Source: Patescibacteria group bacterium (GTDB taxonomy: Bacteria > Patescibacteriota > Doudnabacteria > UBA920). Taken from it: a DNA stretch of 64,000 nucleotides. Below, in pieces: positions 5,066 to 30,318 of the stretch. The stretch's first letter is position 1; the number at the start of each line of letters is the position of its first letter. The position numbers and the translations under genes were made by a program. The DNA lies in contig WARV01000010.1 of assembly GCA_013387205.1 (NCBI GenBank), positions 765 to 64,764 of the forward strand. Direction: 5' to 3'. Under the pieces are notes generated by a model. The model was not told where the DNA came from and searched no databases. It worked only from the letters and a program-made list of their open reading frames with translations.

Positions 5066-5144
5066 AATGGAATTCTTAAATTTATTACTTTAATATTATA
5101 CCATCCAACCTAAGTTTCTACGAACTAACACCTCTACCATACTT

Positions 5145-5257
5145 CTACTAAATACTAAAAGGTACTAAATATACTAAATCACATCAAATATACTTAATTG
5201 ATATCACTGCTAGTATATAGCTTTAGTATATTTAGTATTATTTCGTATTTAGTAGAG
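5145..5257. mobile_element. ~115-bp MITE-like element, family 'CTACTAAA'
   Basis: Ends TCTACTAAATAC...GTATTTAGTAGA with shared core TACTTAATTGATATCA. Further copies at ~18372-18458 (short), 18786-18901, 19756-19870, 32180-32296, 63705-63803. Confidence 0.75.
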
Positions 5258-5260
5258 CTT

Positions 5261-6931
5261 TTAGTATCCGTTAATCCCAAACATGGATTTGGGCAATTCG
5301 AATTTGGAGATAATCCCCTGGTTTTGCTGGTTTCTTTTTAAAAAGACAATATTATAGCCATCCACGAACACCGGCGCCCATAACGGGTCATGAACCCGGC
5401 TGATTAGAAAGCTCTGCGCCCAAGGGGTAAAATCGCGGTGGGAAAAAATTATGACATTAAAATTTTCTTGTCTTTCCAGTTCCTGCCAGGCCTGCGCGTT
5501 ATCCTGGGCCGGGATATAGATTTTCTGCAAAAAATCCACGGAATAAGCTTCCGGGCGGTTATCAACGAAAACTTTTTCTTTGGGGAATAAATGGAAGATT
5601 AAATAACCGCCAATATCGTAGTCGTTAAAAATAGGGCCTTGAATATTATTTTGTTTGATAAATTCAGCCGAAGCATTCACGTAAGGCATTAAGCCAATTC
5701 CCATAGCCGAAGTCTTCTCGGAAAATTTCAGATAGTCGCGGTAGCCGCTGCCTAAAATAATAAGCAGGCAGATTGCAATAAAATACGCGTGACGAATATC
5801 AAGGGGTATCCTTGATCTGATCAAGGATGCCCCTTGATACAACGCATTGATGTTGTAGGCTAGAATAGGGATAATGAATAACCCGAAAAACGGAAAATTA
5901 CGGATGCCGAACACTGCCATCACCGAAACAATAAAAAAAATGGCAAACAGCGGCCAGGAAAATTTTTTCCTTTGGAAAAATATCACCAAAATAAAACTTA
6001 TAACCCCTATTGCCAGCACTGCTTTGAACAAAGAAAAATTCAACCCGGCCGTGTGGTTAAGCCTTTCCAAAAACCGGACGGACTGGTTTTCAACGACCAA
6101 GTAACCGTAGTTGTTAAAAATCTGCAAAGGATAGAGCGCGCCTTTAATGAAGTTAGGATTAACTAGCGCGGCTAAACCAGAGACTATACCAGTCAGCAAT
6201 AAATTCTTATCAAAAATTTCGTAAAAATCGCGGCCGCGATTTTTACGAAATCGGTTGTCTACCAGAGACCTTGTGGCACTGCTTACAAAAAACACAAAAA
6301 TCAGCAGCAAGCCCATAAAAAACCCGATGTGTAAGTTTACCCAAATAAGCATTAATACTGGCAATAAATACAACCATCGTTTTTTAGTTTTATCCGCGTT
6401 TATATCCGCGGCTGCAGTATCAGATCCGCGTGCAATCTGCGGATTATAATACACCCACAGCACAAAGAAAAATATCCCGGTAAAAAGATAGGTAAACATT
6501 TCCGGGCGCACTTCCGCGCGCGTGGCAAACAATGGCATAACCAAAACACTTGCAGCAATAGCTAAAAGCCAGCCGCCCATCTTTTTTGCCAGGAAAAAAT
6601 ACACGGCAAAAGTACTTATGCCGAGCAGGATGTAAAATGCTGACAGGCCGGAAAATCCCAAAATTTTCCATACCAGGAAAAACACCACCCCGCTCCCCCA
6701 GTGGTGGTTGATAAACGAAAAGCCAGGCTCAGTGTAGGAATAAAAATTTGTCTTAAAGATATTTTGAGAAAAACCGGAAAGTATAATTTCCCCATTCTTG
6801 ATATGCCTGCCCAAATCCGCGGTAGTCAAATCTATCTTCTGGGCAAAATAAAGCCCGCACCAAGACAATAGGATGATGACGCCTAAGATTTTAAGGATAT
6901 TTGATATTATTTTGGTTTTACTATTAGCCAT
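5261..6931 (-). CDS. Polytopic membrane protein, possible GT-C-fold glycosyltransferase
   Basis: Many TM segments; DLGRH..G, RPEMF, WVNLHIGF, FVDNRPEAY motifs. Confidence 0.6.
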   Translation of the reverse strand: MANSKTKIISNILKILGVIILLSWCGLYFAQKIDLTTADLGRHIKNGEIILSGFSQNIFKTNFYSYTEPGFSFINHHWGSGVVFFLVWKILGFSGLSAFYILLGISTFAVYFFLAKKMGGWLLAIAASVLVMPLFATRAEVRPEMFTYLFTGIFFFVLWVYYNPQIARGSDTAAADINADKTKKRWLYLLPVLMLIWVNLHIGFFMGLLLIFVFFVSSATRSLVDNRFRKNRGRDFYEIFDKNLLLTGIVSGLAALVNPNFIKGALYPLQIFNNYGYLVVENQSVRFLERLNHTAGLNFSLFKAVLAIGVISFILVIFFQRKKFSWPLFAIFFIVSVMAVFGIRNFPFFGLFIIPILAYNINALYQGASLIRSRIPLDIRHAYFIAICLLIILGSGYRDYLKFSEKTSAMGIGLMPYVNASAEFIKQNNIQGPIFNDYDIGGYLIFHLFPKEKVFVDNRPEAYSVDFLQKIYIPAQDNAQAWQELERQENFNVIIFSHRDFTPWAQSFLISRVHDPLWAPVFVDGYNIVFLKRNQQNQGIISKFELPKSMFGINGY

Positions 6932-10578: not shown

Positions 10579-13050
10579 TCAAATTTCTGACGGCCTGTTA
10601 TCCAAGTAAAATCTTTTTACCAAAACTGCCAAAGCCAGCAAAGATAAAATCGCTATAACCAGATATTTTATTCCAACGATTTTTTTGTTGGTTGGATTAT
10701 TTTTTCCATCACTGGCTAAAGCTTTGGTCGGCTCAATTGATGGTATTGCCAAATCATCCAGCTTGTTGTTTAAATCTACAACCTGTTGCTTTAAATTTTG
10801 AATTTCCTGCAGCATCTGTTCGCTGTTTTTTAAAGCCAGCGCGTAAGCTTTGTTTAACTCCTTGTCGCTTACGGTCTTTTTTACTGCAGATGCTTCTTTT
10901 TGCGAAGCACTGCCGGTTGCGGCAGAAAGAACCATCTCGTTAGGTTTTCCTGGCGTAGGTTTTTCTGTCCACAAATACTCGTCCCCTGCCGTCTGCGCGT
11001 AAGCCATACCCATTTCCGCTTTGCCATAAGTTACTTTGTCAATCTCCCTTCCCAAAAAGTCGGTTAAAGAAACGCTCTGGCCGGAGTTCCTTAACTTGGC
11101 CGGTAATTCATCTTCGTAAACAGCATAAAACTCCCCGGGCCTTAACACGCTCTGAGTATCCAAAATTTTACTGCTGTTTCCTAAATGCAGCACCAACCCT
11201 GCCAAAGGATACTCCTTCTCTCCGACATTTTTTATTTCCACAAATTCTTCATCATTTTTTTCAGGATACGGTAAAATTTCAGTAATGATAATTTTTGGCA
11301 GTTCAATGTCAGCTGCATTCTTTTGCCCGGGAGTCGGTATGCCATATTGCCATTTGCCCGATGAGTCTTTGCTGTAACTTTGCCCTTCCGGCGCTTTTTC
11401 AAAACCAACCTGTTCAACTAACTGCCTGGCTGGATTAAACAGCCTGACCGTATCTTTAGTATTATCCAAAGAAAATTTATCTTCCGGAATATTTAAAACA
11501 AAATAGCTTTCCGCCAAAATTATGGCTTTGTCATCTAAAGTCCAGGCAGATGAACCAATGGCACCGTCGCCATCGTCCAAAATAAAGCCTTTCAGGCTAA
11601 CATTGTCCTTGCTGCTGTTAAAAATTTCTACCCATTCTTTGCCGTCGTCAGCGCCTACGGGATTGGCCATTATCTCATTAATAAAAATTCCGGGGTTAGA
11701 AAAAATGCTTTCTGCCGGCAAAAAATTTTTCTGTCCAAGAGTCGGACTTGCCCACGCCCATTTGCCGGAAATTTTTTGCAAAGATTTTCCTTCCGGCGCA
11801 GCGTCGCTGTAGCTGGCTTTGTCAGCCAATGTTTTGTCTGTAAAATACAAGTTTGCCTCGTCCCCGCCCGTGTTGTTAAACGCAAAATAACCTTTGGGGA
11901 TAACAAAGACGGCAAACGCGCCAGGATTGATGATTGTAGGCGGCAATTGGTAAGCGTTGGATTTTACTCCGCTGTCGCTTTTATCGCCAAGGTACCAACC
12001 TCCGACGTCAACCGCTTCAGCCCCGATATTTTCCAGCTCCACCGCTTCCTTGCCGCTGTCATCGCCGGGAGGATTGGCGTAAATTTCCGAAAGTTTAATG
12101 AAACCGGGTTTGCTTTGGCTGGTCTGGACTGCCGCGCTGCTTCCGGAATTATTCTGGTTGTTTTCCTGCTGGTCTAAGGCCGGCGTAGTGGTGGAATTAT
12201 TTTGGTTATCAGTCAGCGTATCGGTGGTTGAAGTTGTTGTGGTGGCCTGGGGCGGGGTAAAATTTTCCGGAAATGTTATGGAAATATTGCGCGGGGAAGA
12301 ATTGGCAATTATGAAATTTTGCGATGGCGATAATAAATCCTGCCTAACTAGCGCTTGCCCGGCTCCGGGATTTTCCGTAGAAACCACGGTAAAGCCGTTT
12401 AACGCGCTCCCCCATGCCACGCTATCAATAATTTCTCCGCTGTCGCTTGCGCCAAGGCGGATGGCAACTCCGTTATTATCGGCAATACTCGCCGAAGTGG
12501 CCGAATCCGGCGCAATTGGAATAGCCGAATAAGAAGAGTTCGCCCACAAATAAAAACCTCGAGCCGGAATTATAGTATCGTCGGTCCAGGATTTTATCAA
12601 AGAATCCAGGCTGCCGGCAGAGGCAGTCCTTTTTACCAGCCTATAGCCTTTTAAATTAAAACTTGTATCACTTTGGTTATATAGCTCAATGAAATCGTCA
12701 GTCGTGTGTCCTGTCCCGCCGGTAATTTGGATTTGGGATATCGCTACAGAAGCAGCTGTCACCACTCCCGGCAGCAAGAAAAATATTGAAAAAAATAAAA
12801 CTGGAAGTGGTCTCAAAACTTGGCTGTAAGGCGATATTTTAGAATTTCGAGACAGTCGGGCAAAACAAATTTTGATGCTTAGCCTCCGGCTAAGCAGAGA
12901 AATTTTTATGGCCGAATGGAGCTTTAATGGCAATCTGGCTCTGCCAGTTGCCAGCTTAACCCCGAAATTATGAAATTGCAGCCAAAATGAAGTTTTGAAA
13001 CCGCTTCCTAAAAACTTTTGTTGTCCCTTGGCGCTTTTAGTACTCTCCAT
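10579..13050 (-). CDS. Multi lamin-tail-domain surface protein with C-terminal TM anchor
   Basis: Repeated I(S/N/T)EI.(A/P)NP...E.VE(L/I).N and TPG..N motifs; C-terminal coiled coil and TM; true start may lie downstream. Confidence 0.8.
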   Translation of the reverse strand: MESTKSAKGQQKFLGSGFKTSFWLQFHNFGVKLATGRARLPLKLHSAIKISLLSRRLSIKICFARLSRNSKISPYSQVLRPLPVLFFSIFFLLPGVVTAASVAISQIQITGGTGHTTDDFIELYNQSDTSFNLKGYRLVKRTASAGSLDSLIKSWTDDTIIPARGFYLWANSSYSAIPIAPDSATSASIADNNGVAIRLGASDSGEIIDSVAWGSALNGFTVVSTENPGAGQALVRQDLLSPSQNFIIANSSPRNISITFPENFTPPQATTTTSTTDTLTDNQNNSTTTPALDQQENNQNNSGSSAAVQTSQSKPGFIKLSEIYANPPGDDSGKEAVELENIGAEAVDVGGWYLGDKSDSGVKSNAYQLPPTIINPGAFAVFVIPKGYFAFNNTGGDEANLYFTDKTLADKASYSDAAPEGKSLQKISGKWAWASPTLGQKNFLPAESIFSNPGIFINEIMANPVGADDGKEWVEIFNSSKDNVSLKGFILDDGDGAIGSSAWTLDDKAIILAESYFVLNIPEDKFSLDNTKDTVRLFNPARQLVEQVGFEKAPEGQSYSKDSSGKWQYGIPTPGQKNAADIELPKIIITEILPYPEKNDEEFVEIKNVGEKEYPLAGLVLHLGNSSKILDTQSVLRPGEFYAVYEDELPAKLRNSGQSVSLTDFLGREIDKVTYGKAEMGMAYAQTAGDEYLWTEKPTPGKPNEMVLSAATGSASQKEASAVKKTVSDKELNKAYALALKNSEQMLQEIQNLKQQVVDLNNKLDDLAIPSIEPTKALASDGKNNPTNKKIVGIKYLVIAILSLLALAVLVKRFYLDNRPSEI

Positions 13051-13079
13051 ATATTTTTTTATTTTTAATGATTATTTCT

Positions 13080-13117
13080 ATTCCCGGAAAACGAGCGATC
13101 GCTCGTTTTCCGGGAAT
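13080..13117. repeat. Perfect 38-bp palindrome downstream of PaaX-like gene 1
   Basis: ATTCCCGGAAAACGAGCGA|TCGCTCGTTTTCCGGGAAT. Confidence 0.95.
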
Positions 13118-13126
13118 GGGTTGGTT

Positions 13127-13681
13127 TTAAAGTTTAAAAAATTTTTTTATATTTTCATCATTATCAATCTGGTCAATACGAAAGATGCGTATATATTCAT
13201 CCAAACCTGTCTCGTATAAATACCTAATCGCATCACGATTTAAAGGATAAGGGTTTATATACACACTTCTCTGGATTTGCAAAAACCCATGATTCTTTAA
13301 CAAAATTCTCAACAATCTTCTTTTATCTTTTGCCTTCTCCGGTATGTCAAAAACCACCATCCTAAATTTTCCATCCCATTTCTCAGGTTTCTTAATATCA
13401 GCCTTTAATAACAATGTTTCCAAAACACCCTTTTTTGTTAATTTAACATACTGATAACCTTTTTCTTTGAAAATTTTTATCCAATGCTTCTGCTCCAAGG
13501 TATTTAAGATATTCAAATAACTTTTATAAGGCACATAGCCTGAAACCTGACGCTTGAAAAATGCCGTTTTGCTTTCAAAAGGTCGTGGAAATAAATCTAC
13601 CACGGCAAATAACGTCAGCAATAACTTTGCTGAATTGGTCAGCTCTCTTTCTTGTGTATTGTATTTTTTTCTTTTTTTCAT
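13127..13681 (-). CDS. PaaX-like protein (wHTH plus Cas2-like domain), copy 1
   Basis: LTKKG; WDGKFRMVVFDIPE; LKNHGFLQIQRSVYINPY. Confidence 0.8.
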   Translation of the reverse strand: MKKRKKYNTQERELTNSAKLLLTLFAVVDLFPRPFESKTAFFKRQVSGYVPYKSYLNILNTLEQKHWIKIFKEKGYQYVKLTKKGVLETLLLKADIKKPEKWDGKFRMVVFDIPEKAKDKRRLLRILLKNHGFLQIQRSVYINPYPLNRDAIRYLYETGLDEYIRIFRIDQIDNDENIKKFFKL

Positions 13682-13702
13682 GTTAATCTAGTTAATCTCT
13701 CG

Positions 13703-13738
13703 TTCCCGGATTTCGAGCGATCGCTCGTTTTCCGGGAA
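13703..13738. repeat. 36-bp palindrome upstream of PaaX-like gene 1
   Basis: TTCCCGGA-ttt-CGAGCGATCGCTCG-ttt-TCCGGGAA, near-identical to 13080-13117. Confidence 0.9.
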
Positions 13739-13795
13739 TTGGTTTTTATTTTGATAATTTTAAAAGCACTATCAAAATATGGTAGTGCTTTACTT

Positions 13796-14254
13796 CTAAA
13801 TTTTATTTTCTTCTTTGCCGTCTTCTTCCGTATCGTTGCCTTCGGGAGACATCTGCTTATACAATGTCCCCAGCACACCGTTTAGGAATTTTCCGCTGCT
13901 TTCCCCGCCAAAACTTTTTGCCAGCTCCACCGCTTCGTTAATGGCGACCTTCGGCGGCACGTCTTTTAAAAACATCAGCTCGTAAATCCCTAAGCGTAAT
14001 ACGCTCCTGTCCACTAAAGTAATTTGTTCTATTGGCCATTCCGGAGCCGTTTTGACGATAATGGCATCTATAGCCGGAAGGTTATCCACCACGCCCTGGA
14101 CCAGGGAACGTACAAAATCCGAATCAGTCAGATTTGGGGCGAACTGTTGGATATTATTTTCAATGATTGTCTTTAAATCCTCTTTCCGGTCATGGAAGTC
14201 CCATTCGAACAAGGACTGCATGGCAACAGTTCGGGATAAATGCCGGTTGGCCAT
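13796..14254 (-). CDS. nusB: Transcription antitermination factor NusB
   Basis: [32 protein letters not shown]. Confidence 0.96.
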
Positions 14255-14328
14255 TTTATAAACCTGTGACCTTTGACATGCGACATCTGGCTGCTTTCTG
14301 TCAAAGGTTAAATATCAAATGTTAAATG

Positions 14329-14499
14329 TTATTTCGTGATTTTTCTGCCTTTGTAGTAGCCGCAATTTTTGCAAGGCAAATGGGGCATTACCGGACTTCC
14401 GCAATTTTTGCAGGATGCCAAAGATTTAGCTTTTAATGCGTGATGGCTGCGGCGCTGGTCGCGTCCGCTTCTGGTCTTATGCTTCTTGGGAACTCCCAT
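14329..14499 (-). CDS. rpmF: 50S ribosomal protein L32 (Zn-binding type)
   Basis: MGVPKKHKTRSGRDQRRSH, CKNC..PH..CKNCGYY. Confidence 0.95.
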   Translation of the reverse strand: MGVPKKHKTRSGRDQRRSHHALKAKSLASCKNCGSPVMPHLPCKNCGYYKGRKITK

Positions 14500-14516
14500 G
14501 GATTTTCTCCGAAAAT

Positions 14517-14570
14517 TCACCCTGAGCTTGCCTGCCACTCCGAAGCTTTAGCGGAGGGGGGTCGAAGGGT
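14517..14570. repeat. Nested palindromic repeat: a CCCTGAGCTTG/TCGAAGGG unit interrupted by a CTCCGAAGCTTTAGCGGAG unit
   Basis: Direct reading. Confidence 0.55.
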
Positions 14571-14632
14571 AAATAAATTTAAATATTTATATTAAGTAAA
14601 CAAATTATATCGAAAACCGGCAATTTTGTCAA

Positions 14633-14670
14633 AAGAAAGAGGCCAGGACACGCTAGCGTGTCCTGGCCTT
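14633..14670 (-). terminator. Intrinsic terminator of the 14686-15015 ORF
   Basis: AGGCCAGGACACGC-TA-GCGTGTCCTGGCCT followed by U-rich tail on the minus strand. Confidence 0.7.
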
Positions 14671-14685
14671 ATGCATCGACTAAGG

Positions 14686-15015
14686 CTAACCCCCTGTTGC
14701 CGGCAATACATCTTCCAGCATATGAAGCTGGAAGGACCTGGTCTGCACGAGGTCTGGAGCAGGTCTGAGCCCCCTCTTTATATCTTTTCGTCTAAGCACC
14801 CCGGATTCTTTTACTCTCCCGGCTACATTAAACAACTCAGTCTCGAAAGCCGATTGTCTGGCTCTATCTTCTGTGAGGACTTCAACGGCTCCGGGAAGAG
14901 TATGGTCGATGGTACTCCCGATAAAGAGAGCCCATCTTTCCAAACCCTCGTCGGCTCGCGTTTCAACGTCCTTGCCCGTTGGTATTAACAACTCCCAACA
15001 AACATCATCTTTCAT
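14686..15015 (-). CDS. Hypothetical protein (109 aa)
   Basis: Purine-rich SD (AAGGAGGAAGG) and its own terminator; no recognisable motif. Confidence 0.6.
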   Translation of the reverse strand: MKDDVCWELLIPTGKDVETRADEGLERWALFIGSTIDHTLPGAVEVLTEDRARQSAFETELFNVAGRVKESGVLRRKDIKRGLRPAPDLVQTRSFQLHMLEDVLPATGG

Positions 15016-15317
15016 TCTCTTTCCTTCCTCCTTGATGCTGAACTACATCTTGGCTACAATTACTTACAACCAAAATGCAATTTACATCATTAAATTATTT
15101 TAATGACAAATATTTTATTAGTAAAGTGGATAACTTTGTCTGTATCTGCGTAATCAGCCCCGAAGGGGCCCCTTCGGGGCGCATCCGCGATTTTCCCTCT
15201 AATCCGCCGGCGAGACAGGAAAATTAACTAAAACTTTTATCATAAGATAACAATTTTAGTTAACCTCACCAGCGGGTTAGAAAGAAAAGGTGGAAGGGAG
15301 TAGAATCAAACACGATA

Positions 15318-15443
15318 CTACTCCCTACTTTTGGGTTCATTCCATGGCAGGAATGGGAATCCAAAGATGAAATGGATGAACCTATTCAGCAGAAATACTG
15401 CCGCAGGAACTCCAAAAACCCAATAACAAATCGTTTCAGGCAT
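15318..15443 (-). CDS. Small membrane peptide B (41 aa)
   Basis: MPETICYWVFGVPAAVFLLNRFIHFIFGFPFLPWNEPKSRE; SD AAGGAG; TAATG coupling to peptide A. Confidence 0.6.
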   Translation of the reverse strand: MPETICYWVFGVPAAVFLLNRFIHFIFGFPFLPWNEPKSRE

Positions 15444-15571
15444 TAACCGTTCTCCTTCAACTCCTTGAAAATCTGCACAACTCGCCTGATCTCTTTTTTC
15501 AGCCACAATATAACAATTGCGGTAGACAGCAAGATTGCCATAACCACAACAATATATCCTGCTCTTTCCAT
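15443..15571 (-). CDS. Small membrane peptide A (42 aa)
   Basis: MERAGYIVVVMAILLSTAIVILWLKKEIRRVVQIFKELKENG; SD GGAGGAGG; promoter TTGCCA-17-TAAATT (15596-15624). Confidence 0.65.
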   Translation of the reverse strand: MERAGYIVVVMAILLSTAIVILWLKKEIRRVVQIFKELKENG

Positions 15572-15644
15572 ATTCCTCCTCCAATCCTTTAAACCAATTT
15601 ACTACAAGAAAAACTTTTTGGCAAATTGGCTTACAGGCTTGGAG

Positions 15645-16167
15645 AAAAAATTGGAGGATAGCGCTTTCCCAGAAGCGCTATCCTCCTTAAGTTAGGAGAG
15701 GATCAAACAGCTAACGCAAAAGTATAATTCCCCTGTTGGCAAAACCTTCTTATATTAAGCTGGTTTTAAAACAAGCTCTAATTATTTCCACAATTGTGGG
15801 TCTAAAGCGATGAGGCCAAAGTATCAAGCGATACTTATAAAGTTTGCCTTCCTGTTAGGCCCACGATAGTGAAGATAATTCTACCAATCTACCAATAAAT
15901 ACTAATCTACTAATACCTACAAATCCTTTTTAGTATGCATTAGTAGGCATTGGTAGTATTCGGATAGATTCGTAGATTGGTAGATATTTGTAGAATGATA
16001 AAACCGTATATTCGATACAGGAGAATCAATAAAAAATTATTCTTGTATGCAATATACGGCTTTTAGATGCCCCCAATTCGGTTTACCGAGATTAGGAGCA
16101 CGTGGCCATTCTGCATAATTTCCTGTAAATCACACAGACTAGATTTTTGTTACAGCAATAGAGTAAC
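15645..16167 (-). ncRNA. Candidate ~520-nt structured non-coding transcript
   Basis: TTGACA(16196-201)-17-TATATT(16173-78); serial hairpins with minus-strand G-U pairs; 14-bp terminator stem 15653-15686; no ORF >=60 aa. Confidence 0.5.
15880..15987. repeat. Periodic inverted-repeat element, family 'CTAAT/ATTAG'
   Basis: ~9-nt units ctaccaat/ctactaat mirrored by attagtag/attggtag. Related at ~20796-20875, 32722-32832, 47125-47245, 54876-54990. Confidence 0.65.
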
Positions 16168-16250
16168 CATATAATATACACTAAAACCGCCCTTTTGTCA
16201 AGACTTTGGGCGGTTTTTGTTGTTATTTTGGCTTATTTAAGCCCAATATA

Positions 16251-16571
16251 TTATCCTTGTATACCTATATCATTAAGCTGGCTGACCAATTTTTCTAACA
16301 GTATTAAAGCCTGGGTTTTATCTCCCTTTTCTTCTATCTTAATTACTTCTCCAAAGTTCATCCTGAAATCCACATTATCCTTAGAAGATAAAATAATTGA
16401 CAAAGCTTTTTCCTGCTGGTCGCTCAAGCCAATTCTCGACCATACGTACGAAAAAAGTTGCGAAGGAGAATATACTTCCCCTGGATAAGGCCTGTCGGGC
16501 AAACCTTCTACAGCCTTTGGCGGATATTCTTTCGCCTCAATGCTATTTTCTCCATTTATATATTCGGGCAT
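16251..16571 (-). CDS. Hypothetical protein (106 aa)
   Basis: ORF with plausible composition, upstream TG-n-TATAAT and downstream hairpin. Confidence 0.6.
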   Translation of the reverse strand: MPEYINGENSIEAKEYPPKAVEGLPDRPYPGEVYSPSQLFSYVWSRIGLSDQQEKALSIILSSKDNVDFRMNFGEVIKIEEKGDKTQALILLEKLVSQLNDIGIQG

Positions 16572-16607
16572 TTTTTTGCTTTTAATATCACGATTTCATT
16601 ATATCAC

Positions 16608-16642
16608 AAAACCCCACCCCGTAAATTTACGGGGTGGGGTTT
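16608..16642 (-). terminator. groEL terminator
   Basis: AAACCCCACCCCGTAAATTTACGGGGTGGGGTTT. Confidence 0.75.
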
Positions 16643-16687
16643 CCTTCAGTGTTATTCCGCGTAGCTATCCGCGTGATATCCGCGATA

Positions 16688-18355
16688 CTAGTAGTCCATC
16701 CCGCCCATTCCGCCTGGCATTCCGCCGGCTGGGGCTGGAGTTTTCGACTCAGGCTTATCAACGACAATAGCTTCGGTAGTAACCAAAGTTGATGCTATTG
16801 ATACGGCATTTTCCAAAGCCAATCGGGAAACTTTGAGAGGATCGACAATGCCGGCCTTCATCATGTCCTCAACAAGGCTATCCTGCCAGTTGCCGCTGTT
16901 CTTGGAAAAATCATAACCTGCATGGCTTGGACTCTTTTCATTCTGGATATAAGAAATAATACTGGTCGGTTCAATGCCGGAATTGGCCGCAATCTGACGC
17001 AAAGGAGCTTCCAAAGAATCGCGCACCACTTTGACTCCGGCCTTTTCGGCAAAAGACAAATTTTTGCTGAGTTCTTCGAGCTTGGGGGCAATGCGGACAA
17101 AGGCTGCACCGCCTCCTGCAACAATCCCCTCTTCCACGGCAGCTTTGGTGGCATTGAGCGCGTCTTCAATTTTGAATTTCTTGGCTTTCATTTCGGTTTC
17201 AGTGAAAGCGCCAACTTTAATCACGCCCACGCCTCCTGCCAAGCGCGCCATCCTTTCCTGCAACTTTTCCTTGTCAAAATCGGAATTGGATTCTTTGTAT
17301 TCTGCCTTAATCTGGTTTACGCGGTCTTCAATGGCTTTTTTGTCGCCCTGGCCGTCGACAATCGTTGTGTTTTCTTTAGTGGCAACAACCTTGCGCGCGC
17401 GACCGAGCTGATTAAGTTCGGTCTTATCTAATTTTAATCCCAAATCTTCGGTAACAACCTGGCCGCCGGTTAAAATTGCAATGTCCTGCAACATCTCTTT
17501 GCGCCTGTCGCCAAAGCCCGGGGCTTTGACAGCTAAAACGTTAAATATGCCGCGGATCTTATTAAGCACAAATGTCGCTAAGGCTTCGCCTTCCACGTCA
17601 TCGGCAATTATCACCAAATCTTTTTTGCCGCTCTGCGCGACTTTTTCCAAAATCGGCAAAATTTCCTGGATGCTGGAAACTTTTTTGTCTGTGATTAAAA
17701 TATAAGGATCTTCCCACACAGCTTCCATGCGCTCGGTATTGGTGACCATGTACGGATTGACAAAACCCTTGTCAAAGCGCATGCCTTTAACCACTTCCTT
17801 GTTAAGGCCAGTGGTCTGCCCTTCTTCAACAGTAATAATTCCTTCATGGCCGACCTGTTCCATCATTTCCGCAATAAGTTCCCCGACTTCGGAATCCAAA
17901 GAAGCGATGGTTGCTACCTGTTTAATTTCTTCCTTGGTCTTAACATCCTTTTTGACTTTCCTTAATTCTTCCACGACAAAAGCCGCAGCCTTGTCCATGC
18001 CCTTTTTAATCTCGTTAGCCTGCGAACTTGCCAATGCTGCCGCTTCAAAGGATTTTTCAATCATTTTCTGCGCCAAAACCGTTGCGGTGGTGGTGCCATC
18101 ACCGGCTTCTTCGTTGGTTTTGTTGGCGACTTCCTGGATTAAGGACGCGCCGACGTTTTCAAACTTGTCTTCAAGCTCAATATCTTTGGCCACGGTCACG
18201 CCGTCGTCAGTAATAGTCGGGCTGCCGAAGCTCTTGTCCAAAATCACGGCCTTGCCGGTCGGACCCAAGGTTACCTTGACCGCGTTGGCTGCCGCATCAA
18301 CTCCGGCCTTAATGGCCTTTTTCGCTTCAAAACCGTATTTGATAATTTTTGCCAT
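16688..18355 (-). CDS. groL: Chaperonin GroEL
   Basis: [20 protein letters not shown] tail. Confidence 0.99.
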
Positions 18356-18466
18356 AATATTTCTCCGAAATTTCTACTAAATACTAATTCTTACTAAAAG
18401 TACTAAATTTTACTTAAATGGCTTTCGTATCTTTAGTACATTTTCGTATTTAGTAGAGATTATTAT

Positions 18467-18772
18467 TTATTCAACTATTGCTAACACATCAGATTCATCC
18501 TTTTCTTTTCCGACGTAAAGAATTTTGTATTCGTTCTTCTTGCCGTCTTCATCCATTTCAACTTCATCGCCGGCATACTTGCCAAACACTACAGTGTCGC
18601 CGACCTTAAGCCCTAAAGAGGCAATTTCGCTGCCGGTCCCCAGTTCCATAATTTTTCCCTGGGCTTTTTTTTCTTTATCTGCAGTGTCCGGCAAAACAAT
18701 CCCGCTCTTGGTTACTTCCTCGCTTGAGAGCTGTTTTACCAGGATCCGGTTTCCTAAAGGTTTTACTTTCAT
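18467..18772 (-). CDS. groS: Co-chaperonin GroES
   Basis: KPLGNRILVK, TKSGIVLP, KVGDTVVFGKYAG. Confidence 0.97.
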   Translation of the reverse strand: MKVKPLGNRILVKQLSSEEVTKSGIVLPDTADKEKKAQGKIMELGTGSEIASLGLKVGDTVVFGKYAGDEVEMDEDGKKNEYKILYVGKEKDESDVLAIVE

Positions 18773-18935
18773 AATTTCTCCGAAATCTCTACTAAATACT
18801 AAAAGGTACTAAATATACTAAAATATCATCAAAAAGGCTTAATTGATACCGCTATTGATTTTTGATTTAGTATCTTTAGTATTATTTCGTATTTAGTAGA
18901 AGCATTAATTTTCCTAATTTATTTTATAGCAACAC

Positions 18936-18962
18936 TTAGCACTCTGTCAAGCTGAGTGCTAA
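18936..18962. promoter_or_regulatory. CIRCE (HrcA operator) overlapping the groES -35
   Basis: Exact TTAGCACTC-N9-GAGTGCTAA; minus-strand TTGACA at 18945-50 lies in the spacer. Confidence 0.96.
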
Positions 18963-19009
18963 TATGTGATAAAAATCCTCTTTCCCCTGCGTCATGTTAT
19001 AATATCACT

Positions 19010-19747
19010 ATGAATGACAGTTATCAAGACGGCCAAGCTGCCCAAAAATATTTAAAATTCCTGGAGTCAAAAAACGGGAAAATACAGCAAAGCGTACTAA
19101 TTGACGCCCTTTTAAATGCGCTTCCCCAAAACCGGCAGCAAAAAATTTTAGATGCATGCTGCGGCTCTGGCTGGTTGACTTCCCGGCTTTTACAGGATTT
19201 TCCCGAAACTTCAGGCTTTGATTCTTCCAAAGAACTTATTGCTTTTGCCCAAAAAAAATATCCGAACATAAACTTTTCCATTGCCGATGCCGCAAATAAT
19301 CTTCCCTACGAAAAAGATTTTTTTGATGTAGTTATTTTAAACATGGCCGCGCCAGATTTGGAAAACCTGCACCAATCTTTCCAAAACCTTTCCGCCATAC
19401 TAAAAAACAATGGACGTTTTACAATGACCATCCCAAATCCTTATTACACATATCCGGTAGCGGTATGGAAGCGCAGCTTTGCGGATTTTATCCAATTTAA
19501 AAAACCTTCATTAAAAATTCAACTTCCGTATTTCCAGGCGCAGGCAATTGAAAGGGAGTTTGGCAAGGGCAATAAAATTTCTTCCCATTTCTATCCCCTG
19601 TCTTCGTATTTGAATGCGGCAAAAGATGCCGGTTTGAAACTGAAAGAAATTAAAGAAATTAAAAGCGTAATTGATAGCCAAAAATTCGACCTGCAATACC
19701 AGCTCTACAGGTATCCGTTGATATTATTGGTAGAATTTACGAAATAA
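19010..19747 (+). CDS. Class I SAM-dependent methyltransferase (likely leaderless start 19010)
   Basis: ILDACCGSG, FDSS, LPYEKDFFDVV. Confidence 0.88.
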   Translation: MNDSYQDGQAAQKYLKFLESKNGKIQQSVLIDALLNALPQNRQQKILDACCGSGWLTSRLLQDFPETSGFDSSKELIAFAQKKYPNINFSIADAANNLPYEKDFFDVVILNMAAPDLENLHQSFQNLSAILKNNGRFTMTIPNPYYTYPVAVWKRSFADFIQFKKPSLKIQLPYFQAQAIEREFGKGNKISSHFYPLSSYLNAAKDAGLKLKEIKEIKSVIDSQKFDLQYQLYRYPLILLVEFTK

Positions 19748-19879
19748 CCTCTTCTCTCTACTAAATACTAAAAAGTACTAAACATACTAAAGCTATATAC
19801 CAGTATTGATATCAGTTAAGTCTATTTGATGATATTTAGTACATTTAGTATTAATTAGTATTTAGTAGAAAGATTAGTA

Positions 19880-20791
19880 TTATCCAAAAAACATCCTCAA
19901 CAAATCCTGCTGCTTACTTAACGGATGGAATGATAGTTCGTCATCTTTAACCACAATAAACTTTTCCTGGCGGATTTTGGGAAGCTGCCAGCTTTTTAAT
20001 ATTACCTCAAAACTCGCGCCAAACTTGTTATCAAAAATTCTTTCCAAAAATTTCTGGTATCGCGATGCTTTATCCTGGATGCAGAAAAACGTAACATTTG
20101 GAAAAAAAATATTAATCCAGCTTAGGTTTTTCATTTGAAAATCGTAAATAGCGCTGGCAAAAACCAAAGGGCGGAGCTTGGCATATTCCCAAGCCGTGTA
20201 TAAATTCCTAAAGCCATCCATTTGTTTTTGCCCCACTATATAATGGTTCAGGCAGAACCGGTTGGAAATTTTATTCCCATGCCGCCTTAAACCTAAAAAT
20301 TGGAAATAAGCCGTTATCAAAGTCCTTGCCAACCATAAAAATTTGTGAGATACGATAATGAACAAGTCGATATCTGAATTTGGTTTTTGAAATCCCTGTG
20401 CCTGGCTGCCGGTTAAACCTACTCCCCTTATGAACGGAATGAGCCTAAGGCCCGAAATGTATTTCCTGATTAATTTTTCCCTGATAATCCCGTAGCTATA
20501 ATTTTGCAGCCTTTTTTCTACAATTTCCCGCTTTCCCGGCAAATAATAAAATCCTTTATCATTTAAAACTTGGCTGCCGCACTCAGTATCCAAGCATTTT
20601 AAAACATCGCTGATTGATACTTGGCTGGAATTTTGTTGTAGATTAATATCATTTAATTCCCATTGGCTGTCGAGTGAAGTTTTAAGGTCTGTTGTTTCGG
20701 AAATTAAAAAACGATGGAGTTCCAAAAGGGTCAAAGGAGTCTCCATTAAATCAAAAAAACGCAAAGTTGAAAGGATACGATTTTTTAACAT
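19880..20791 (-). CDS. Pol-beta-superfamily nucleotidyltransferase-domain protein
   Basis: TGSQA...SDIDLFII; RFCLN. Confidence 0.75.
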   Translation of the reverse strand: MLKNRILSTLRFFDLMETPLTLLELHRFLISETTDLKTSLDSQWELNDINLQQNSSQVSISDVLKCLDTECGSQVLNDKGFYYLPGKREIVEKRLQNYSYGIIREKLIRKYISGLRLIPFIRGVGLTGSQAQGFQKPNSDIDLFIIVSHKFLWLARTLITAYFQFLGLRRHGNKISNRFCLNHYIVGQKQMDGFRNLYTAWEYAKLRPLVFASAIYDFQMKNLSWINIFFPNVTFFCIQDKASRYQKFLERIFDNKFGASFEVILKSWQLPKIRQEKFIVVKDDELSFHPLSKQQDLLRMFFG

Positions 20792-20881
20792 ATTACTAGT
20801 CCACTAATTCTCGAATAAACACTAATTACACTAAGTAGTTTCGTGATATTAGTGATGATTAGTGTATTAGTGGATGGGTAA

Positions 20882-21229
20882 TTATAAGCCTAACTTGTCC
20901 AGTGTTATTTCTTCCCACTCGTCAAAATCAACTTCCTTGAAGACACGAAGTTTATGCGAAAATTGGTCTTGAGAAAACTTATATTCTGTCCTGGCAGTAT
21001 CGCCCATCCGGTGCGAATAATGCTCTTTCTTTTCCAAAACAACAGGATGGTTTTCGCGTACTAGTTTATACCTGTCGCCGCTTGGATGGGTGAATATTAA
21101 AATATCCTGGGCCCCGCGCTTCTGCGGGCCGTCCTCAGTTTCGACCATAATATCTTCCGTTCTTAAGCTAACATCGGAAAAATTATTCTTGGCCGCCTCC
21201 ACTAATTGTTCCCATTTTTCATTTGTCAT
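20882..21229 (-). CDS. Hypothetical protein
   Basis: Co-directional ORF in the operon, typical composition. Confidence 0.7.
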   Translation of the reverse strand: MTNEKWEQLVEAAKNNFSDVSLRTEDIMVETEDGPQKRGAQDILIFTHPSGDRYKLVRENHPVVLEKKEHYSHRMGDTARTEYKFSQDQFSHKLRVFKEVDFDEWEEITLDKLGL

Positions 21230-21230
21230 A

Positions 21231-21307
21231 GGTTACAGATTACGAATAATTTACAGATGTACGGATTACGGATCTGTATATCTGTACAAAATCCGTAATC
21301 TTTAACC
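21231..21307. repeat. Periodic inverted-repeat element, family 'ACAGAT/ACGGAT'
   Basis: Near copy at ~54139-54220 (ataatttacagat..cggattacggatctgtatat); half copy at ~10054-10100. Confidence 0.7.
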
Positions 21308-21310
21308 TGA

Positions 21311-21604
21311 TTACTGCGTAAGGCTGCCGCCGTAAATTCCGCCTAAGGTGGAAAGGGATTTCATTACCATTGGCAAAAGCACGGCCATAGCCAAAATCGG
21401 CAGTACAATTAAAACGAGAGTAATGTACAATTGCCATTGCATGTATTTTTTCGTCTTGCGTGAGTTTTCTAAAATTTCTGCCAACATTTCCCTGTCCTCC
21501 GACTTGTCCGACGTAGCTTTAGCGAAGTCGGAAGCCTTGGCGAAGGAGGATTCTTGGCCCATTACTTGCCCTTGCTGCACATTTTCCATTTGATTTGTTT
21601 CCAT
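21311..21604 (-). CDS. Small single-TM protein with in-frame nested repeat insertion
   Basis: C-terminal TM; SSFAKASDFAKATSDKSEDR encoded by nested palindromic units. Confidence 0.7.
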   Translation of the reverse strand: METNQMENVQQGQVMGQESSFAKASDFAKATSDKSEDREMLAEILENSRKTKKYMQWQLYITLVLIVLPILAMAVLLPMVMKSLSTLGGIYGGSLTQ

Positions 21605-21781
21605 AAGTTTTATCCCCTCTCCTTATCATAGGAGAGGGAGGGTGAGGTTATTATTCTTATCTTTATTTTACCATACCAGCCAATTGACAAAAAGCCGCTT
21701 TAATTATACCCTAAATTGACGCCAAAAGCGCCAAATCAAAACCATAGCTGACGGCGGAAAGCCTAAGCAACTGGAGGATAT

Positions 21782-22324
21782 ATGCAAGAAACGGTCATTG
21801 AAACGTTCAAGGAATGGCTTCTTGAACAAACCGAGAAAACCGTAGTTGTGCGCACGTGGATTTATGAAGAGGCAGGGAAATCTGCAGCGTTCGAATCCTA
21901 CCTGTTCTTCAGACAAAAGGATGGTATTCTGTTCGGGGTGCTGTCGTCTCAATCCTTAAAACCAGTGACCCCGCATCATCAACAGTTAGGTCCAATCCCC
22001 TACGATCATCCAGGATTGGATCAAGAACTCCGCAAATGGATCCGCATGCGATGCGACGACTTCTTGGACTGCGAACAGGTTGTAACTGTCCGCCAAGCAA
22101 ACAACAGCATCACCAGCGCTGGTACCTTCTCGCCAGAGATTCCGTACGTCTTCGGAATGCTATTTGCAGAAATAAAGGGGTTCGTCGACAATCCCAAGAC
22201 ATCTCAGAGCGAACGCTTTTTGATGCAAACAGTTGTCAACCGTTTGTCTGGTTTCCTGAACGAACAGTTCAGTAAGTTCAAGCAAGCTAAACAGCAACTA
22301 CTCGAGGTCGTTTCCTCTATGTAG
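21782..22324 (+). CDS. Hypothetical protein (180 aa), stand-alone unit
   Basis: TTGACA(21684)-17-TACCCT, SD GGAGG, terminator 22327-22364. Confidence 0.7.
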   Translation: MQETVIETFKEWLLEQTEKTVVVRTWIYEEAGKSAAFESYLFFRQKDGILFGVLSSQSLKPVTPHHQQLGPIPYDHPGLDQELRKWIRMRCDDFLDCEQVVTVRQANNSITSAGTFSPEIPYVFGMLFAEIKGFVDNPKTSQSERFLMQTVVNRLSGFLNEQFSKFKQAKQQLLEVVSSM

Positions 22325-22363
22325 CAAAAGCCCGCGGCGCGCATTTTGCGCCGCGGGCTTCTT

Positions 22364-22393
22364 TCACCCTTCGGGTGATCACCCGAAGGGTGA
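22364..22393. repeat. Perfect 30-bp REP-like palindrome
   Basis: TCACCCTTCGGGTGA|TCACCCGAAGGGTGA. Confidence 0.8.
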
Positions 22394-22414
22394 CTATATT
22401 CTAAATTCTAGATT

Positions 22415-23404
22415 CTACTTTTGGCATTTCGGGCAAAACGAACCGGTGCGTCCGCCAATCTTCATCGACTGGATTACTGTGCCGCAAACTTTACATTTCT
22501 CCCCTGCCCGGCCGTAAACGAAATGAAATTTTCCCATTTGCCCCCAAGAGCCATCTGTCCTTATAAAATCCCCAACCGACGAGCCCTTAGCTTTAATCGC
22601 CTGCTTTAAAACTTTTTGAATGTTTTGATAAATACCCCTTAATTCTTGATTCTTAATACTTGATACTTTCCTGTCCGGCCTGACTTTGGCATGAAATAAA
22701 ATCTCATCGCTATAAATATTGCCAATCCCCGCCACTACTTTTGGATCCATCAAAACCTGTTTGATTTTCCCCTTCGGACGTTTTTTCACGGCCGTGAAAA
22801 AACGTCCCCATATGAATTCTTTGTTTAACGGCTCGGGGCCGTATTCCGAAAGTTCTCTAACTTGATCAATCTCATTATCGCGCACCAATTTTAAATACCC
22901 AAACTTACGTACGTCGTTAAAATACAAAGTTGATCCATCTGTAAATTTAAATATCACGTGCGTGTGCTTGCTTGGCAACTGGACCAATGGAGCATTAGAT
23001 GAATTAATCAGGCGATATTTTCCACCAGTTTTTTGCCGCAGTTTTTTATCCTCAAAAATAAACTGCCCGGTCATTTTTAAATGTGCCAAAATAGAAAGCG
23101 ATCCGCTTGTCCGACGTAGCCTTGCATTGCCCGCCGAAGCTTTATGCGAAGGCTGGGGCGAAGTTGGAGATAAATCAAAAATCAAAAGTTTGGCCCTGCG
23201 CTTAACCGACAAAATCTTTTTTCCAATCAGCAAATCAGAAAATTTTTTTACCTGGCCATTTTTGACTTTCCTGACATTACTAACGACATCCGGTCCAATT
23301 TGCACCATCTTTGGCGCATTAACAAAAACCGACTTAATAGCCTTGTTTTTTAGCTTTTTATTTAGTTCATTTACAATGGTTTGGACTTCTGGGAGTTCAG
23401 GCAT
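22415..23404 (-). CDS. mutM: Formamidopyrimidine-DNA glycosylase
   Basis: MPELPEV, HLKMTGQ, GIGNIYSDE, C-terminal zinc finger. Confidence 0.97.
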   Translation of the reverse strand: MPELPEVQTIVNELNKKLKNKAIKSVFVNAPKMVQIGPDVVSNVRKVKNGQVKKFSDLLIGKKILSVKRRAKLLIFDLSPTSPQPSHKASAGNARLRRTSGSLSILAHLKMTGQFIFEDKKLRQKTGGKYRLINSSNAPLVQLPSKHTHVIFKFTDGSTLYFNDVRKFGYLKLVRDNEIDQVRELSEYGPEPLNKEFIWGRFFTAVKKRPKGKIKQVLMDPKVVAGIGNIYSDEILFHAKVRPDRKVSSIKNQELRGIYQNIQKVLKQAIKAKGSSVGDFIRTDGSWGQMGKFHFVYGRAGEKCKVCGTVIQSMKIGGRTGSFCPKCQK

Positions 23405-23482
23405 CAATTTAGATATTAGATAACTTAATTATACCAATCGCCGCACAATTGACAAAATAACCTATAAATGAGAAAATGGTTA

Positions 23483-23911
23483 GTCGCTGATGTTTGCATG
23501 CCTTAAATGATATCCCGAAAGGATGAATAGTTTTTTGTTCTAAGTTTAAGGCGGTTTGATGTTACGACGGCGACAAAAGACCTGAATAAGGCTTGGCGAG
23601 AAAAAGTCAAAAGAGGAAAGCAATTCTCCAAGTTTTGGCGTGTGAGGTTATGTATTTGAGGCAGGCGGCACTGCCGGAAAATGAGACCAAAACCACTATC
23701 TTCCTCTACGCGAGGATAAAAAGCACGACATGGGAACCGCAAGAACCATGTAGCCGCAATAGTTTTTATTGCGGGTGCTGCCAAAACCAACCTGAAGATC
23801 GCGTTTAAAAATTCTTTAAATTAAAAAATTTTTGAAATACCCAGCGGCACATCTTCAGGACAACGAGAACCTAATCCCGCTCGCCACCACCCTTTAAGGT
23901 GGTGGCTTTTT
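23483..23911 (+). ncRNA. Candidate ~430-nt multi-domain structured RNA of unknown family
   Basis: TTGACA(23449)-17-GAAAAT with extended TG; nested stems and multi-way junctions; terminator 23883-23911. Confidence 0.65.
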
Positions 23912-24062
23912 CATTTTATTGACAATATCATGTTATTGATATATATTAATCTATCAATTGCGGTTTGCGGAGTAAGCGTTTCTAGTGCTTATTCCGCTGC
24001 CCGCAAGAGCAGCCTGCCTTTGGCAGACTTCGTCTACCTAGACGTTAAACGAGGTGGAAAAG

Positions 24063-24440
24063 ATGAGTGAGGTCGAGAATCCTCTCACCAAATTACATCA
24101 GTTAACCCGCACAACCGAGCAGCAACTTTGCCAAAATGCGGGAATGATTGCTAAAGCATTAGCAGCTTTAGGGCCCTGCAATCTACCTATGGACTACCAA
24201 GTCCGGAAGGTTGCTGGCAAACCCCGACTCCAACGACGGAATAAGAGATGTCACGAAGGAGTCCCTTACAAACACGCTTTTACGGTATATCCGGAAATCC
24301 GGGTGCCAATCTACGACGCTCTCTGCATAGCTGAAGATGTAGAGGCTGGTTTGATTGACCAAGTTGTCGTCGAACTACAGACAATGCAGAAAGCTGAAAC
24401 CGTGCTCGCAAAAGCAGTGGCTAGACTGAAGTTGATGTAG
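24063..24440 (+). CDS. Hypothetical protein with structured leader
   Basis: TTGACA(23919)-17-TATATT, SD GAGGTG, ATG 24063. Confidence 0.6.
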   Translation: MSEVENPLTKLHQLTRTTEQQLCQNAGMIAKALAALGPCNLPMDYQVRKVAGKPRLQRRNKRCHEGVPYKHAFTVYPEIRVPIYDALCIAEDVEAGLIDQVVVELQTMQKAETVLAKAVARLKLM

Positions 24441-24927
24441 GATTTTTCAGACTTGAAAGTTCAGTTTTTCAGTATTCCATCTTCCGTATTCCGTTTTCCG
24501 TCATGCAATAATGATTGCGTTCTTGGGTAGACGCAAGCAGGAGGAGGAATATACCCAATTATTATGCAAAAAATAGAACATCGTTCTATGGATAATGCAA
24601 AAAGATCATGAAAGCCCGCTAGAGGAACCAGATGTGTTTCTCGCGGGCTTTTCATATTGAAAATATTCCCATTCTCCGTCATAATAAGTATAATGGTTTT
24701 TGGTTAAATTACAGGGTGTTATCCAAACGGCTAAATCGATTATTTACTGCGTTTTAGCCGTTCTCCTTCCCTGTAAAGGGAAGGTGGCTTGCGAAAACAA
24801 GCCGGAAGGGTATGACAATAATTTGATACCACCTCCCTCCACTTTTACGTGGAGTACTCCTCCTTAGAAAGGAGGAGAGAAGGTTACACCAGCACCCAGT
24901 TCGCAATAACGATAACGTTAAAATGAT

Positions 24928-26433: not shown

Positions 26434-26688
26434 CGCGATCCGAATCAACGAATACCCCGAAGGGGTCCATTTGGGACATCCGAATGCTCCGAATAAAAGA
26501 ACAGCGGTTCGATATTAAAATAATTCAAAACTTGAAAATAACCAAAAACAACGGCTAAAACCTAATATTCTTAGGTTTTAGCCGTTGTTTTATACCACCC
26601 CCTCCTTTGACAAGGGGGTTATATAAAAGTCCTATATGTCGTATTCGACATATAGGACTTTTAAGGCAAATCTTATTTCTATCAGCGA

Positions 26689-27291
26689 CTAGAACATTAT
26701 ATCTTCTTCCGCTCGCTTGTATGCGTGTATTTCTTCCGGTTTAAACCACAAGTTGATTTCGTTATTTGCTTCTTCCGGGGTTTCGGAGGCATGCATGATG
26801 TTATGGATAGCACGGCGTTCGACATTAGCAACTGACGGGGAGTCTACGGAGTAATCACCGCGGATAGTTCCCATTTCCGCAAACACCGGCAAGGTGTGGC
26901 CTGCCAATTTGCGAATCATGTCAATTGCGTGGATACCCTGGATAACCATAGCCACAACCGGCCCGCTGCTTAAATATTCTATCAAGGAAGTCTTCACCAT
27001 TTTGCCGATTTCTTTCGGGTCAGCAGTGCCTTGCGCTTCGATAGGATCTATATTATATTCGGCAAATGTTTTTAAAGTTTTATTGCCCAAGCGTTCCACC
27101 CATTCATCGCTGGTCGGCAAATGTTTTTCCGCATGGTTTGGCGTAGCCTGGACCATTTTTATAGCAATGATTTTCAAACCTCTTCTTTCAATGCGCTGAA
27201 TGACTTCTCCGGTCAACCCCCTCTTTACACCGTCCGGCTTAACCAAAACTAATGTTTTCTCTTCCTTAATTTTTTTATGGATCTCGGTCAT
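26689..27291 (-). CDS. ndk: Nucleoside diphosphate kinase
   Basis: TLVLVKPDG, GTIRGD, NIMHAS. Confidence 0.95.
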   Translation of the reverse strand: MTEIHKKIKEEKTLVLVKPDGVKRGLTGEVIQRIERRGLKIIAIKMVQATPNHAEKHLPTSDEWVERLGNKTLKTFAEYNIDPIEAQGTADPKEIGKMVKTSLIEYLSSGPVVAMVIQGIHAIDMIRKLAGHTLPVFAEMGTIRGDYSVDSPSVANVERRAIHNIMHASETPEEANNEINLWFKPEEIHAYKRAEEDIMF

Positions 27292-27417
27292 TTATTTGTC
27301 CTATATGTCTTATAAGTCCAATTTGGCTTATTTGACCAATTAAAATTATTTTTTAGATCTTTCGACTCGTCCGCCAACCAGCAGACTCGCTTAGAGGATG
27401 ACAATTGTAAAATAATT

Positions 27418-28176: not shown

Positions 28177-28211
28177 CCTTATGTATTTTAATGATTACAA
28201 TGATAATTTTA

Positions 28212-29690: not shown

Positions 29691-29726
29691 CGTATCAAAA
29701 ATGAGCGGCCGCTCATTTTTGATACG
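29691..29726. repeat. Perfect 36-bp palindrome containing the stop of PaaX-like gene 2
   Basis: CGTATCAAAAATGAGCGG|CCGCTCATTTTTGATACG. Confidence 0.95.
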
Positions 29727-30261
29727 GTAATTTAAACCTCTCTCTTAATTCCCTATCGTCATCCATCTGGTCCACTCTGATAATCCTGACAAAATCCATT
29801 AACCCTGTTTGTTTTAAATATTCTACTGCATGGCTATTTAAAGGATAGGGACTTATAAAAACACTTGCCTGCAATTTCACAAAATTGTTTTGCTTTAATA
29901 ACCTTCGAAATCTATTCCGTTCCCATTTAAAAGCTTCGGGAATATCAAACATTATCAATCTCCATTTATTATCCCAGGGTATAAAAGCGCGCAATTTTGC
30001 CATCAACATTAAATAATGAAGGTATCCATTCTTTGTTATTCTTAAAAACTTTTTATTGTTTTTCTCTACAACTTCTACATCATTACGTTTTTTTAACCTA
30101 GAGACTACCGTGCGATAATAATCCGGGTCGAAATTTTTAACTCTTCTGCTCCAGGCATATGGTGATTCAAAAGGAACAGGTAACATATGTGCCGCCTCCA
30201 CTAAAAACTGAAGGACACCATCCACTATCGATAAAGTTATGTTTTGAGTTTGTTTTGCCAT
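29713..30261 (-). CDS. PaaX-like protein (wHTH plus Cas2-like domain), copy 2
   Basis: PFES, ITKNG, WDNKWRLIMFDIPE, FVKLQASVFISPY. Confidence 0.8.
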   Translation of the reverse strand: MAKQTQNITLSIVDGVLQFLVEAAHMLPVPFESPYAWSRRVKNFDPDYYRTVVSRLKKRNDVEVVEKNNKKFLRITKNGYLHYLMLMAKLRAFIPWDNKWRLIMFDIPEAFKWERNRFRRLLKQNNFVKLQASVFISPYPLNSHAVEYLKQTGLMDFVRIIRVDQMDDDRELRERFKLPYQK

Positions 30262-30282: not shown

Positions 30283-30318
30283 TGTATCACTTTTGAGCGG
30301 CCGCTCAAAAGTGATACG
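30283..30318. repeat. 36-bp palindrome upstream of PaaX-like gene 2
   Basis: tGTATCACTTTTGAGCGG|CCGCTCAAAAGTGATACg. Confidence 0.93.

Follow-up and report, generated by a model that had tools for sequence, protein, structure and literature searches.

REPtrons are described as a RAYT (TnpA-REP) gene that seldom moves and lies between cognate palindromes, with a dispersed population of the repeat, and as absent from plasmids and phages (bioRxiv 10.1101/2021.07.10.451892, PMC8266576). Even for REPs, the spread of short palindromic repeats in bacteria is described as still open (PMC8266576). PaaX, known from E. coli and Pseudomonas (PDB 8a39, TIGR02277), has a 39-bp split palindromic operator and represses itself, a layout resembling the one described here (PMC9493321). 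Palindromic repeats in frame within housekeeping genes are represented by the Rickettsia palindromic elements, which are ~150 bp long (PMC10969869). In the literature searched, whose coverage leaves most subscription journals outside, no description was found of the system presented here, in which small PaaX-like proteins (mini-PaaX) are encoded between palindromes.

The window, a 64,000-nucleotide stretch of DNA from a Patescibacteria group bacterium of the Doudnabacteria, contains two such cassettes and solo palindromes of the same family, with the following features:

6216..6251, no strand: solo family palindrome, in frame in a 556-aa ORF (5261-6931, minus strand) with no family assigned
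10579..13050, minus strand: gene for a lamin-tail-domain protein, context gene on the other side of cassette 1
13080..13117, no strand: cassette 1 downstream palindrome, 38 bp, perfect 19/19 pairs, CGATCG core
13127..13681, minus strand: mini-PaaX gene 1 (P0001), 184 aa, wHTH plus Cas2-fold, FDIP motif with D112
13703..13738, no strand: cassette 1 upstream palindrome, a hybrid that combines two arm variants and pairs at 15/19, probable operator
13796..14254, minus strand: nusB, context gene on the cassette 1 side
22776..22807, no strand: solo family palindrome in fpg/mutM (22415-23407, minus strand), in frame, no indel relative to relatives
29691..29726, no strand: cassette 2 downstream palindrome, GCGGCCGC core, overlapping the stop codon of gene 2
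29713..30261, minus strand: mini-PaaX gene 2 (P0002), 182 aa, upstream of comEC
30284..30317, no strand: cassette 2 upstream palindrome, partner of the 29691..29726 copy

The original prediction of a 184-aa wHTH plus Cas2-like gene between near-identical palindromes is borne out at cassette 1, where the two copies are identical at 34/38 positions, and the setting that it gave, between nusB and the next co-directional gene, is correct, the order being nusB, cassette and lamin-tail-domain gene. Gene 2 had been presented as a paralogue with the same architecture, different arms and an identical 22-bp offset; the architecture and the different arms stand (protein identity to gene 1 is 36%), but the gap between palindrome and ATG measures 21 bases for gene 1 and 22 for gene 2, with a distance from palindrome centre to ATG of 39 in both. 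Contigs from public runs over positions 12000-31500 (three low-depth runs of one study) gave no joint skipping either cassette, at a depth (~2-8) too low for this to carry weight, and a metagenome scan with P0001 as sole query found no relative.

The gene 1 protein matches PF20803 (PaaX_M, 67.5 bits), and its structure model (mean pLDDT 77) combines an N-terminal helix-helix-beta-hairpin of wHTH type with a ferredoxin-like, Cas2-type domain. The best fold match is PaaX 8a39, with Cas2 and VapD also among the top matches, none of them at E <=0.001. Relatives are often labelled Cas2 in databases; mini-PaaX just exceeds the cut-off of TIGR01573 (cas2), while TIGR02277 (full-length PaaX) gives 27 and 33 bits versus a cut-off of 264.55. 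The Asp after the first strand of Cas2 is catalytic in Cas2, and D112, which aligns with the FD motif (FDMP) of Cas2, is present in 149/149 aligned family proteins. This residue is equally kept in a 13-member clade of ~161-aa proteins without cognate palindromes, so that it is no proof of a role in copying. The Y1_Tnp Pfam domain has no match in mini-PaaX, and an H-hydrophobic-H string (HUH-type) occurs in only 4/149 family proteins.

Among described proteins, PaaX is the nearest in fold, sharing the wHTH and the Cas2-like central domain; however, mini-PaaX lacks its C-terminal (phenylacetyl-CoA-binding) effector domain (184 vs 316 aa) and keeps the FD aspartate, whose equivalent is absent from E. 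coli PaaX, and no flanking palindromes were found at E. coli paaX. The absence of phenylacetate genes, also part of the original prediction, extends to the 98% complete genome for paaA/C (PF05138), the paa genes that were searched for there, and a role as paa regulator was rejected on this ground. With CRISPR Cas2 and VapD, mini-PaaX shares the ferredoxin-like domain with an FD...Q.S motif, but it is fused to a wHTH, its palindromes are dispersed and not in an array, and its neighbours are housekeeping genes; a CRISPR cas2 was rejected because no cas1 was found in the genome. Compared with the REP/RAYT systems, the likeness lies in a gene that seldom moves and has cognate palindromes on both sides, in dispersal of the same palindrome, in several cognate pairs per genome and in mainly vertical descent, with no match found in plasmid and phage collections, although mini-PaaX reaches up to 9 paralogues per genome, with gains and losses within a genus. 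Unlike those systems, mini-PaaX has no HUH motif, Y1 domain, GTAG or doublet architecture; the protein is a wHTH plus Cas2-fold, and the palindromes have zero-loop 19-bp arms, 3-10 copies per type versus hundreds, and frequent in-frame copies. The palindromes also differ from the Rickettsia elements in being ~38 bp long, tied to a cognate gene and found as same-length overwrites as well (fpg), and from insertion sequences and MITEs in that no near-identical gene copies occur at several sites and no shared target-site duplication is seen. The system thus falls outside the definitions of RAYT, PaaX and CRISPR Cas2.

Relatives identified by sequence carry Doudnabacteria/Patescibacteria labels, which makes the host a CPR bacterium. 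PF20803 occurs in 35/41 close genomes (0-9 copies each) and in 78/301 sampled genomes of the phylum. The family sample covers part of these matches, favouring high scorers and the order to which this genome belongs, and comprises 151 distinct proteins, 147 of them with both flanks. With a cognate pair defined as a downstream palindrome that has an upstream match of at least 26/36, pairs are present at 100/147 family loci versus 8/792 control genes of this genome, the strong enrichment that had been proposed as a check on homologues; on the same counts, a lone terminator was rejected. Swapped pairs (n=1,500) match in 0.9% of cases, and the matrix of cassettes of this genome has its best values on the diagonal in 7/8 rows. 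The layout is found in all clades except the ~161-aa clade, and in the ~220-aa clade it has other cores, mostly ATAT or CAATTG-like. The members of the ~161-aa clade (L009, L021-L024, L030-L033, L035-L038), in which the Asp is kept and the cognate pair absent, are often the sole copy in their genome and possibly represent a domesticated form.

The half-site is bipartite, with identity between flanking copies of 0.88-0.98 at positions 1-5, 0.64-0.75 at positions 7-11 and 0.80-0.91 at positions 12-17, and the spacer positions (A/T) are still paired within the downstream copy (0.83-0.90). The PaaX site TGATTC(N27)GAATCA spans the same width as the pair of half-sites (PMC9493321). On the gene strand, G-U and A-C pairs number 29 vs 23 downstream and 45 vs 39 upstream, with no bias. 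The bipartite half-site, the operator span of PaaX and the lack of G-U bias point to a dimer reading double-stranded DNA, together with a process that symmetrises DNA; dimerisation itself is presumed by analogy. Core similarity tracks identity of the Cas2 domain (rho 0.55); the similarity of the outer arms is uncorrelated with wHTH identity overall (rho 0.03) and rises only above 50% identity, which counts against the explanation preferred below. It is very probable that mini-PaaX binds its own palindrome.

It has also to be considered that the palindromes may act at the RNA level, as hairpins (terminators or processing sites) that an endoribonuclease of the Cas2/VapD type would cleave. Both VapD and Cas2 are close to mini-PaaX in fold, the downstream copy of cassette 1 scores as terminator-like on the plus strand, and solos lie mostly past gene ends. 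However, the lack of G-U over A-C bias, the fixed 19-bp arms, the bipartite pattern and the wHTH domain all point to DNA, and an Rfam scan of the window matched two tRNAs and nothing else, so that this explanation is regarded as highly improbable.

Self-repression is suggested by the position of the upstream palindrome and by a promoter-like consensus that overlaps the upstream copy in 9/100 cases and the downstream copy in 0/100; at cassette 1 itself, scanning for promoters gave no consensus within the upstream palindrome. Such repression could also be all that the protein does. Mini-PaaX would then be no more than a repressor of its own gene, or a protein that binds the chromosome, and the palindromes would be its operators, multiplied by something else (a Y1 transposase acting in trans, template switching during replication, or recombination) and retained because binding is selected for. 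This would agree with the promoter overlaps and with PaaX, which represses itself as a dimer and whose site has the same geometry (PMC9493321). Against it, mini-PaaX has no effector domain, and the symmetric covariation of the spacer positions goes beyond the need of binding alone. Together with the evidence from solos and from the Y1 transposase loci given below, this leaves a pure repressor, the main rival explanation, rather unlikely, though less so than the RNA hairpins.

The genome has nine PF20803 genes. Eight of them sit between palindromes whose core is CG[GA][CT]CG, with one of the upstream copies truncated at the end of a contig and one of the downstream copies half decayed; the ninth belongs to the ~161-aa clade and has no such pair. 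Of the 646 CG[GA][CT]CG cores, 57 pair at >=13/19 versus 1, 0 and 0 in three shuffles of the genome, and a chance origin was therefore rejected. At >=15/19 there are 50 family palindromes, 35 of them solos. The cassette 1 palindrome has 10 copies genome-wide, only two of them at gene 1; eight of these pair perfectly, in either of two spacer variants, the other two are hybrids, and the upstream hybrid of gene 1 is exactly repeated by one solo. Eight solos are in ORFs (including fpg, miaA, tsaD and cysteine desulfurase), 12 in convergent, 15 in tandem and none in divergent spacers, as counted with rough gene calls, in which several of the mini-PaaX genes were overlooked; the convergent excess among the 27 intergenic solos (12/27 versus ~13% expected by spacer count) has p ~5e-5. 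The preference for convergent and the avoidance of divergent spacers (0/27) are unlike a regulon and speak against a mere repressor. In 24 genomes of the same family, the count of the commonest motif correlates with gene copy number (rho 0.75; control pattern 0.15), a correlation that partly counts the flanking copies themselves and is drawn from kin that are not independent.

No sequence conservation is seen in the flanks beyond palindrome position 19, and no shared target-site duplication, with relatives too distant to fix the junctions (the own genus is one genome). The three Y1 transposase (Y1_Tnp) genes of the genome provide a candidate for copying by another agent, but no family palindrome was found within ~1.5 kb of the three loci, and a GTAG/GGAG-type motif stands beside only 2/50 family palindromes. 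The stacking of other palindrome families in the same spacers would also suit an agent other than mini-PaaX; 7/8 cassette 1 solos are within 100 bases of another repeat family. One such repeat is a CTCAACC...GGTTGAG hairpin with an upstream CAAT-motif, with ~42 genome copies (e.g. C1:45390, C15:4956), which is stacked with several palindrome families, including mini-PaaX sites, in mosaic spacers.

The original prediction held that the proteins may propagate the palindromes or themselves. As to the gene, it appears from its placement among relatives to be mostly stationary, moving slowly or rarely. Homologues at least 70% identical are syntenic in 7/8 pairs by script, and the eighth pair shares an 88-aa neighbour that was dropped by the length filter, so it is syntenic too; within the genome, paralogues are at most 60% identical to P0001 and near-identical gene copies are absent. 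An autonomous element consisting of the whole palindrome-gene-palindrome unit, entering or leaving a solo by crossover at the centre and leaving solos as footprints, is improbable for these reasons, despite the 68 distinct upstream neighbours among 97 cassettes and the 0-9 gene copies per genome. The nusB spacer is of interest in this regard, as a search for empty sites there had been suggested. From 29 of the 55 matching loci of relatives that were fetched, eight keep nusB beside the lamin-tail gene: six are empty without a family palindrome, one has a solo at the same place (L106) and one a cassette of 221 aa that is unrelated (L101). The spacer is thus seen empty, with a solo and filled, as an autonomous element would produce, although neither gene nor solo is present at 6/8 of these junctions, nor at 27/29 loci upstream of comEC in relatives (the other two being one cassette and one solo). 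The nusB-site solo of G010 has one further copy, and the 1.5 kb around it contain no mini-PaaX gene. Five cassettes have the inverted-hybrid pattern that a centre crossover would leave, versus clear self-symmetry in 39, and plasmid and phage collections gave no mini-PaaX match, with one weak viral contig seen besides. An actively jumping gene cassette is the part of the prediction that finds no support.

In one genus, four orthologous cassettes at one site (49-53% identical to the query) have four different arms, and two genomes are empty; the arms of a pair thus change together while the locus stays the same. In a second genus, one cassette is common to three genomes, and a fourth (L194, G068:C10) has in the same spacer a gene which we take, from its motifs, to be IS200/RAYT-like. 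This gene has internal GTAGGGGCG repeats.

There is evidence, from comparison of homologous loci, that the palindrome and not the gene is the mobile part, and the palindrome is in all likelihood copied as a unit. Its appearance at new sites, the part of the propagation claim that is supported, is clearest in tsaD, where a stretch of 63 nt in the relatives shown measures 105 nt here (+42, in frame) and 111 nt in G043 (+48). The added stretch is a family palindrome whose arms differ between the two genomes, the insert here being identical at 33/38 positions to the C9 cassette palindrome of the same genome. The insertion is missing from 22/24 other loci, the remaining two being G043 and one without the region.

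In fpg, a palindrome occupies the same codons with no indel in 12/20 loci (9 clearly symmetric, 3 partly) and is absent in eight. It matches a cassette of its own genome at 34/38 positions in G016, at 32 in G056, G005 and G024 and at 28 in G045, with the scores of G056 and G045 tying with a cassette of the genome studied here; in five of 11 relatives (G043, G044, G013, G055 and G009) it has no match among the fetched cassettes of its own genome, and for G050 no own cassette was fetched for comparison. The fpg palindrome of this genome matches its own cassettes at only 27/38, and G014 has eight mini-PaaX paralogues and yet no fpg palindrome. Persistence of the same-codon sites across genera would be consistent with operators kept by selection for binding. 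In miaA, the loop length varies, with clear family palindromes in 5/25 loci and CGGCCG remnants in others. This one loop of MiaA in relatives (L287-L311) has also taken up palindromic repeats of several unrelated kinds, all inserted in frame.

The explanation preferred here, to which we give about an even chance, is a REP/RAYT-like pair built on a non-HUH protein, in which a mostly stationary gene encodes a protein that likely binds its own palindrome, represses itself through it and copies it. A mini-PaaX dimer would bind its 36-38-bp palindrome on double-stranded DNA, with the two wHTH domains reading the outer arms (12-17 bp from the centre) and the Cas2-fold dimer sitting over the CG[GA][CT]CG core; the upstream copy would serve as the self-repression site. 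The Cas2-type Asp112 may then nick at or near the site. Repair that uses a cognate copy or fold-back as its template could leave a symmetric palindrome behind, whether inserted as a short stretch or written over a site that is older or near-cognate. A D112-dependent nick followed by such repair would explain the symmetric spacers, the hybrids, the short insertions and the same-length overwrites. We infer from the sequences that mini-PaaX mobilises the palindromes, and we lean slightly towards the protein itself being the copying agent. More tentatively, and at somewhat less than an even chance, mini-PaaX would be a Cas2-fold enzyme outside CRISPR that is aimed by its wHTH and writes its own 38-bp site by insertion or same-length overwrite, even in essential genes.

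A second, unrelated protein family thus appears to share the REP/RAYT arrangement, and its numerous natural cognate pairs, of which this genome alone has eight, make specificity and mechanism testable by swaps. The preferred explanation would give a function to a large CPR family now labelled Cas2 or PaaX, would bear on the origins of both, and would provide a route for selfish DNA to rewrite protein loops and helices. If a Cas2-fold writer is real, it would found a new class of enzymes that propagate repeats without HUH, DDE, serine or tyrosine chemistry, and would be a site writer programmable by domain swap.

Other repeats and genes were observed in the same genome. A 251-aa ORF without NCBIfam match (C6:34600-35770, L367) is bracketed by three zero-loop CTATAG-core palindromes of another type and is possibly a second gene-plus-palindrome family. 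Spacers of the window contain a dispersed family of TACTAAA-type short tandem arrays that form long inverted pairs (5130-5270, 18359-18471, 18774-18914, 19743-19883, 32167-32309 and 63708-63815); two TACTAAA-type arrays bracket groES, and similar arrays flank small genes elsewhere in the genome. The window also encodes a reverse transcriptase (37983-39002, minus strand), which follows a 145-aa ORF of no family (39213-39650, minus strand), is upstream of nrdR and has as best NCBIfam match the retron St85-type (123 bits, below cut-off).
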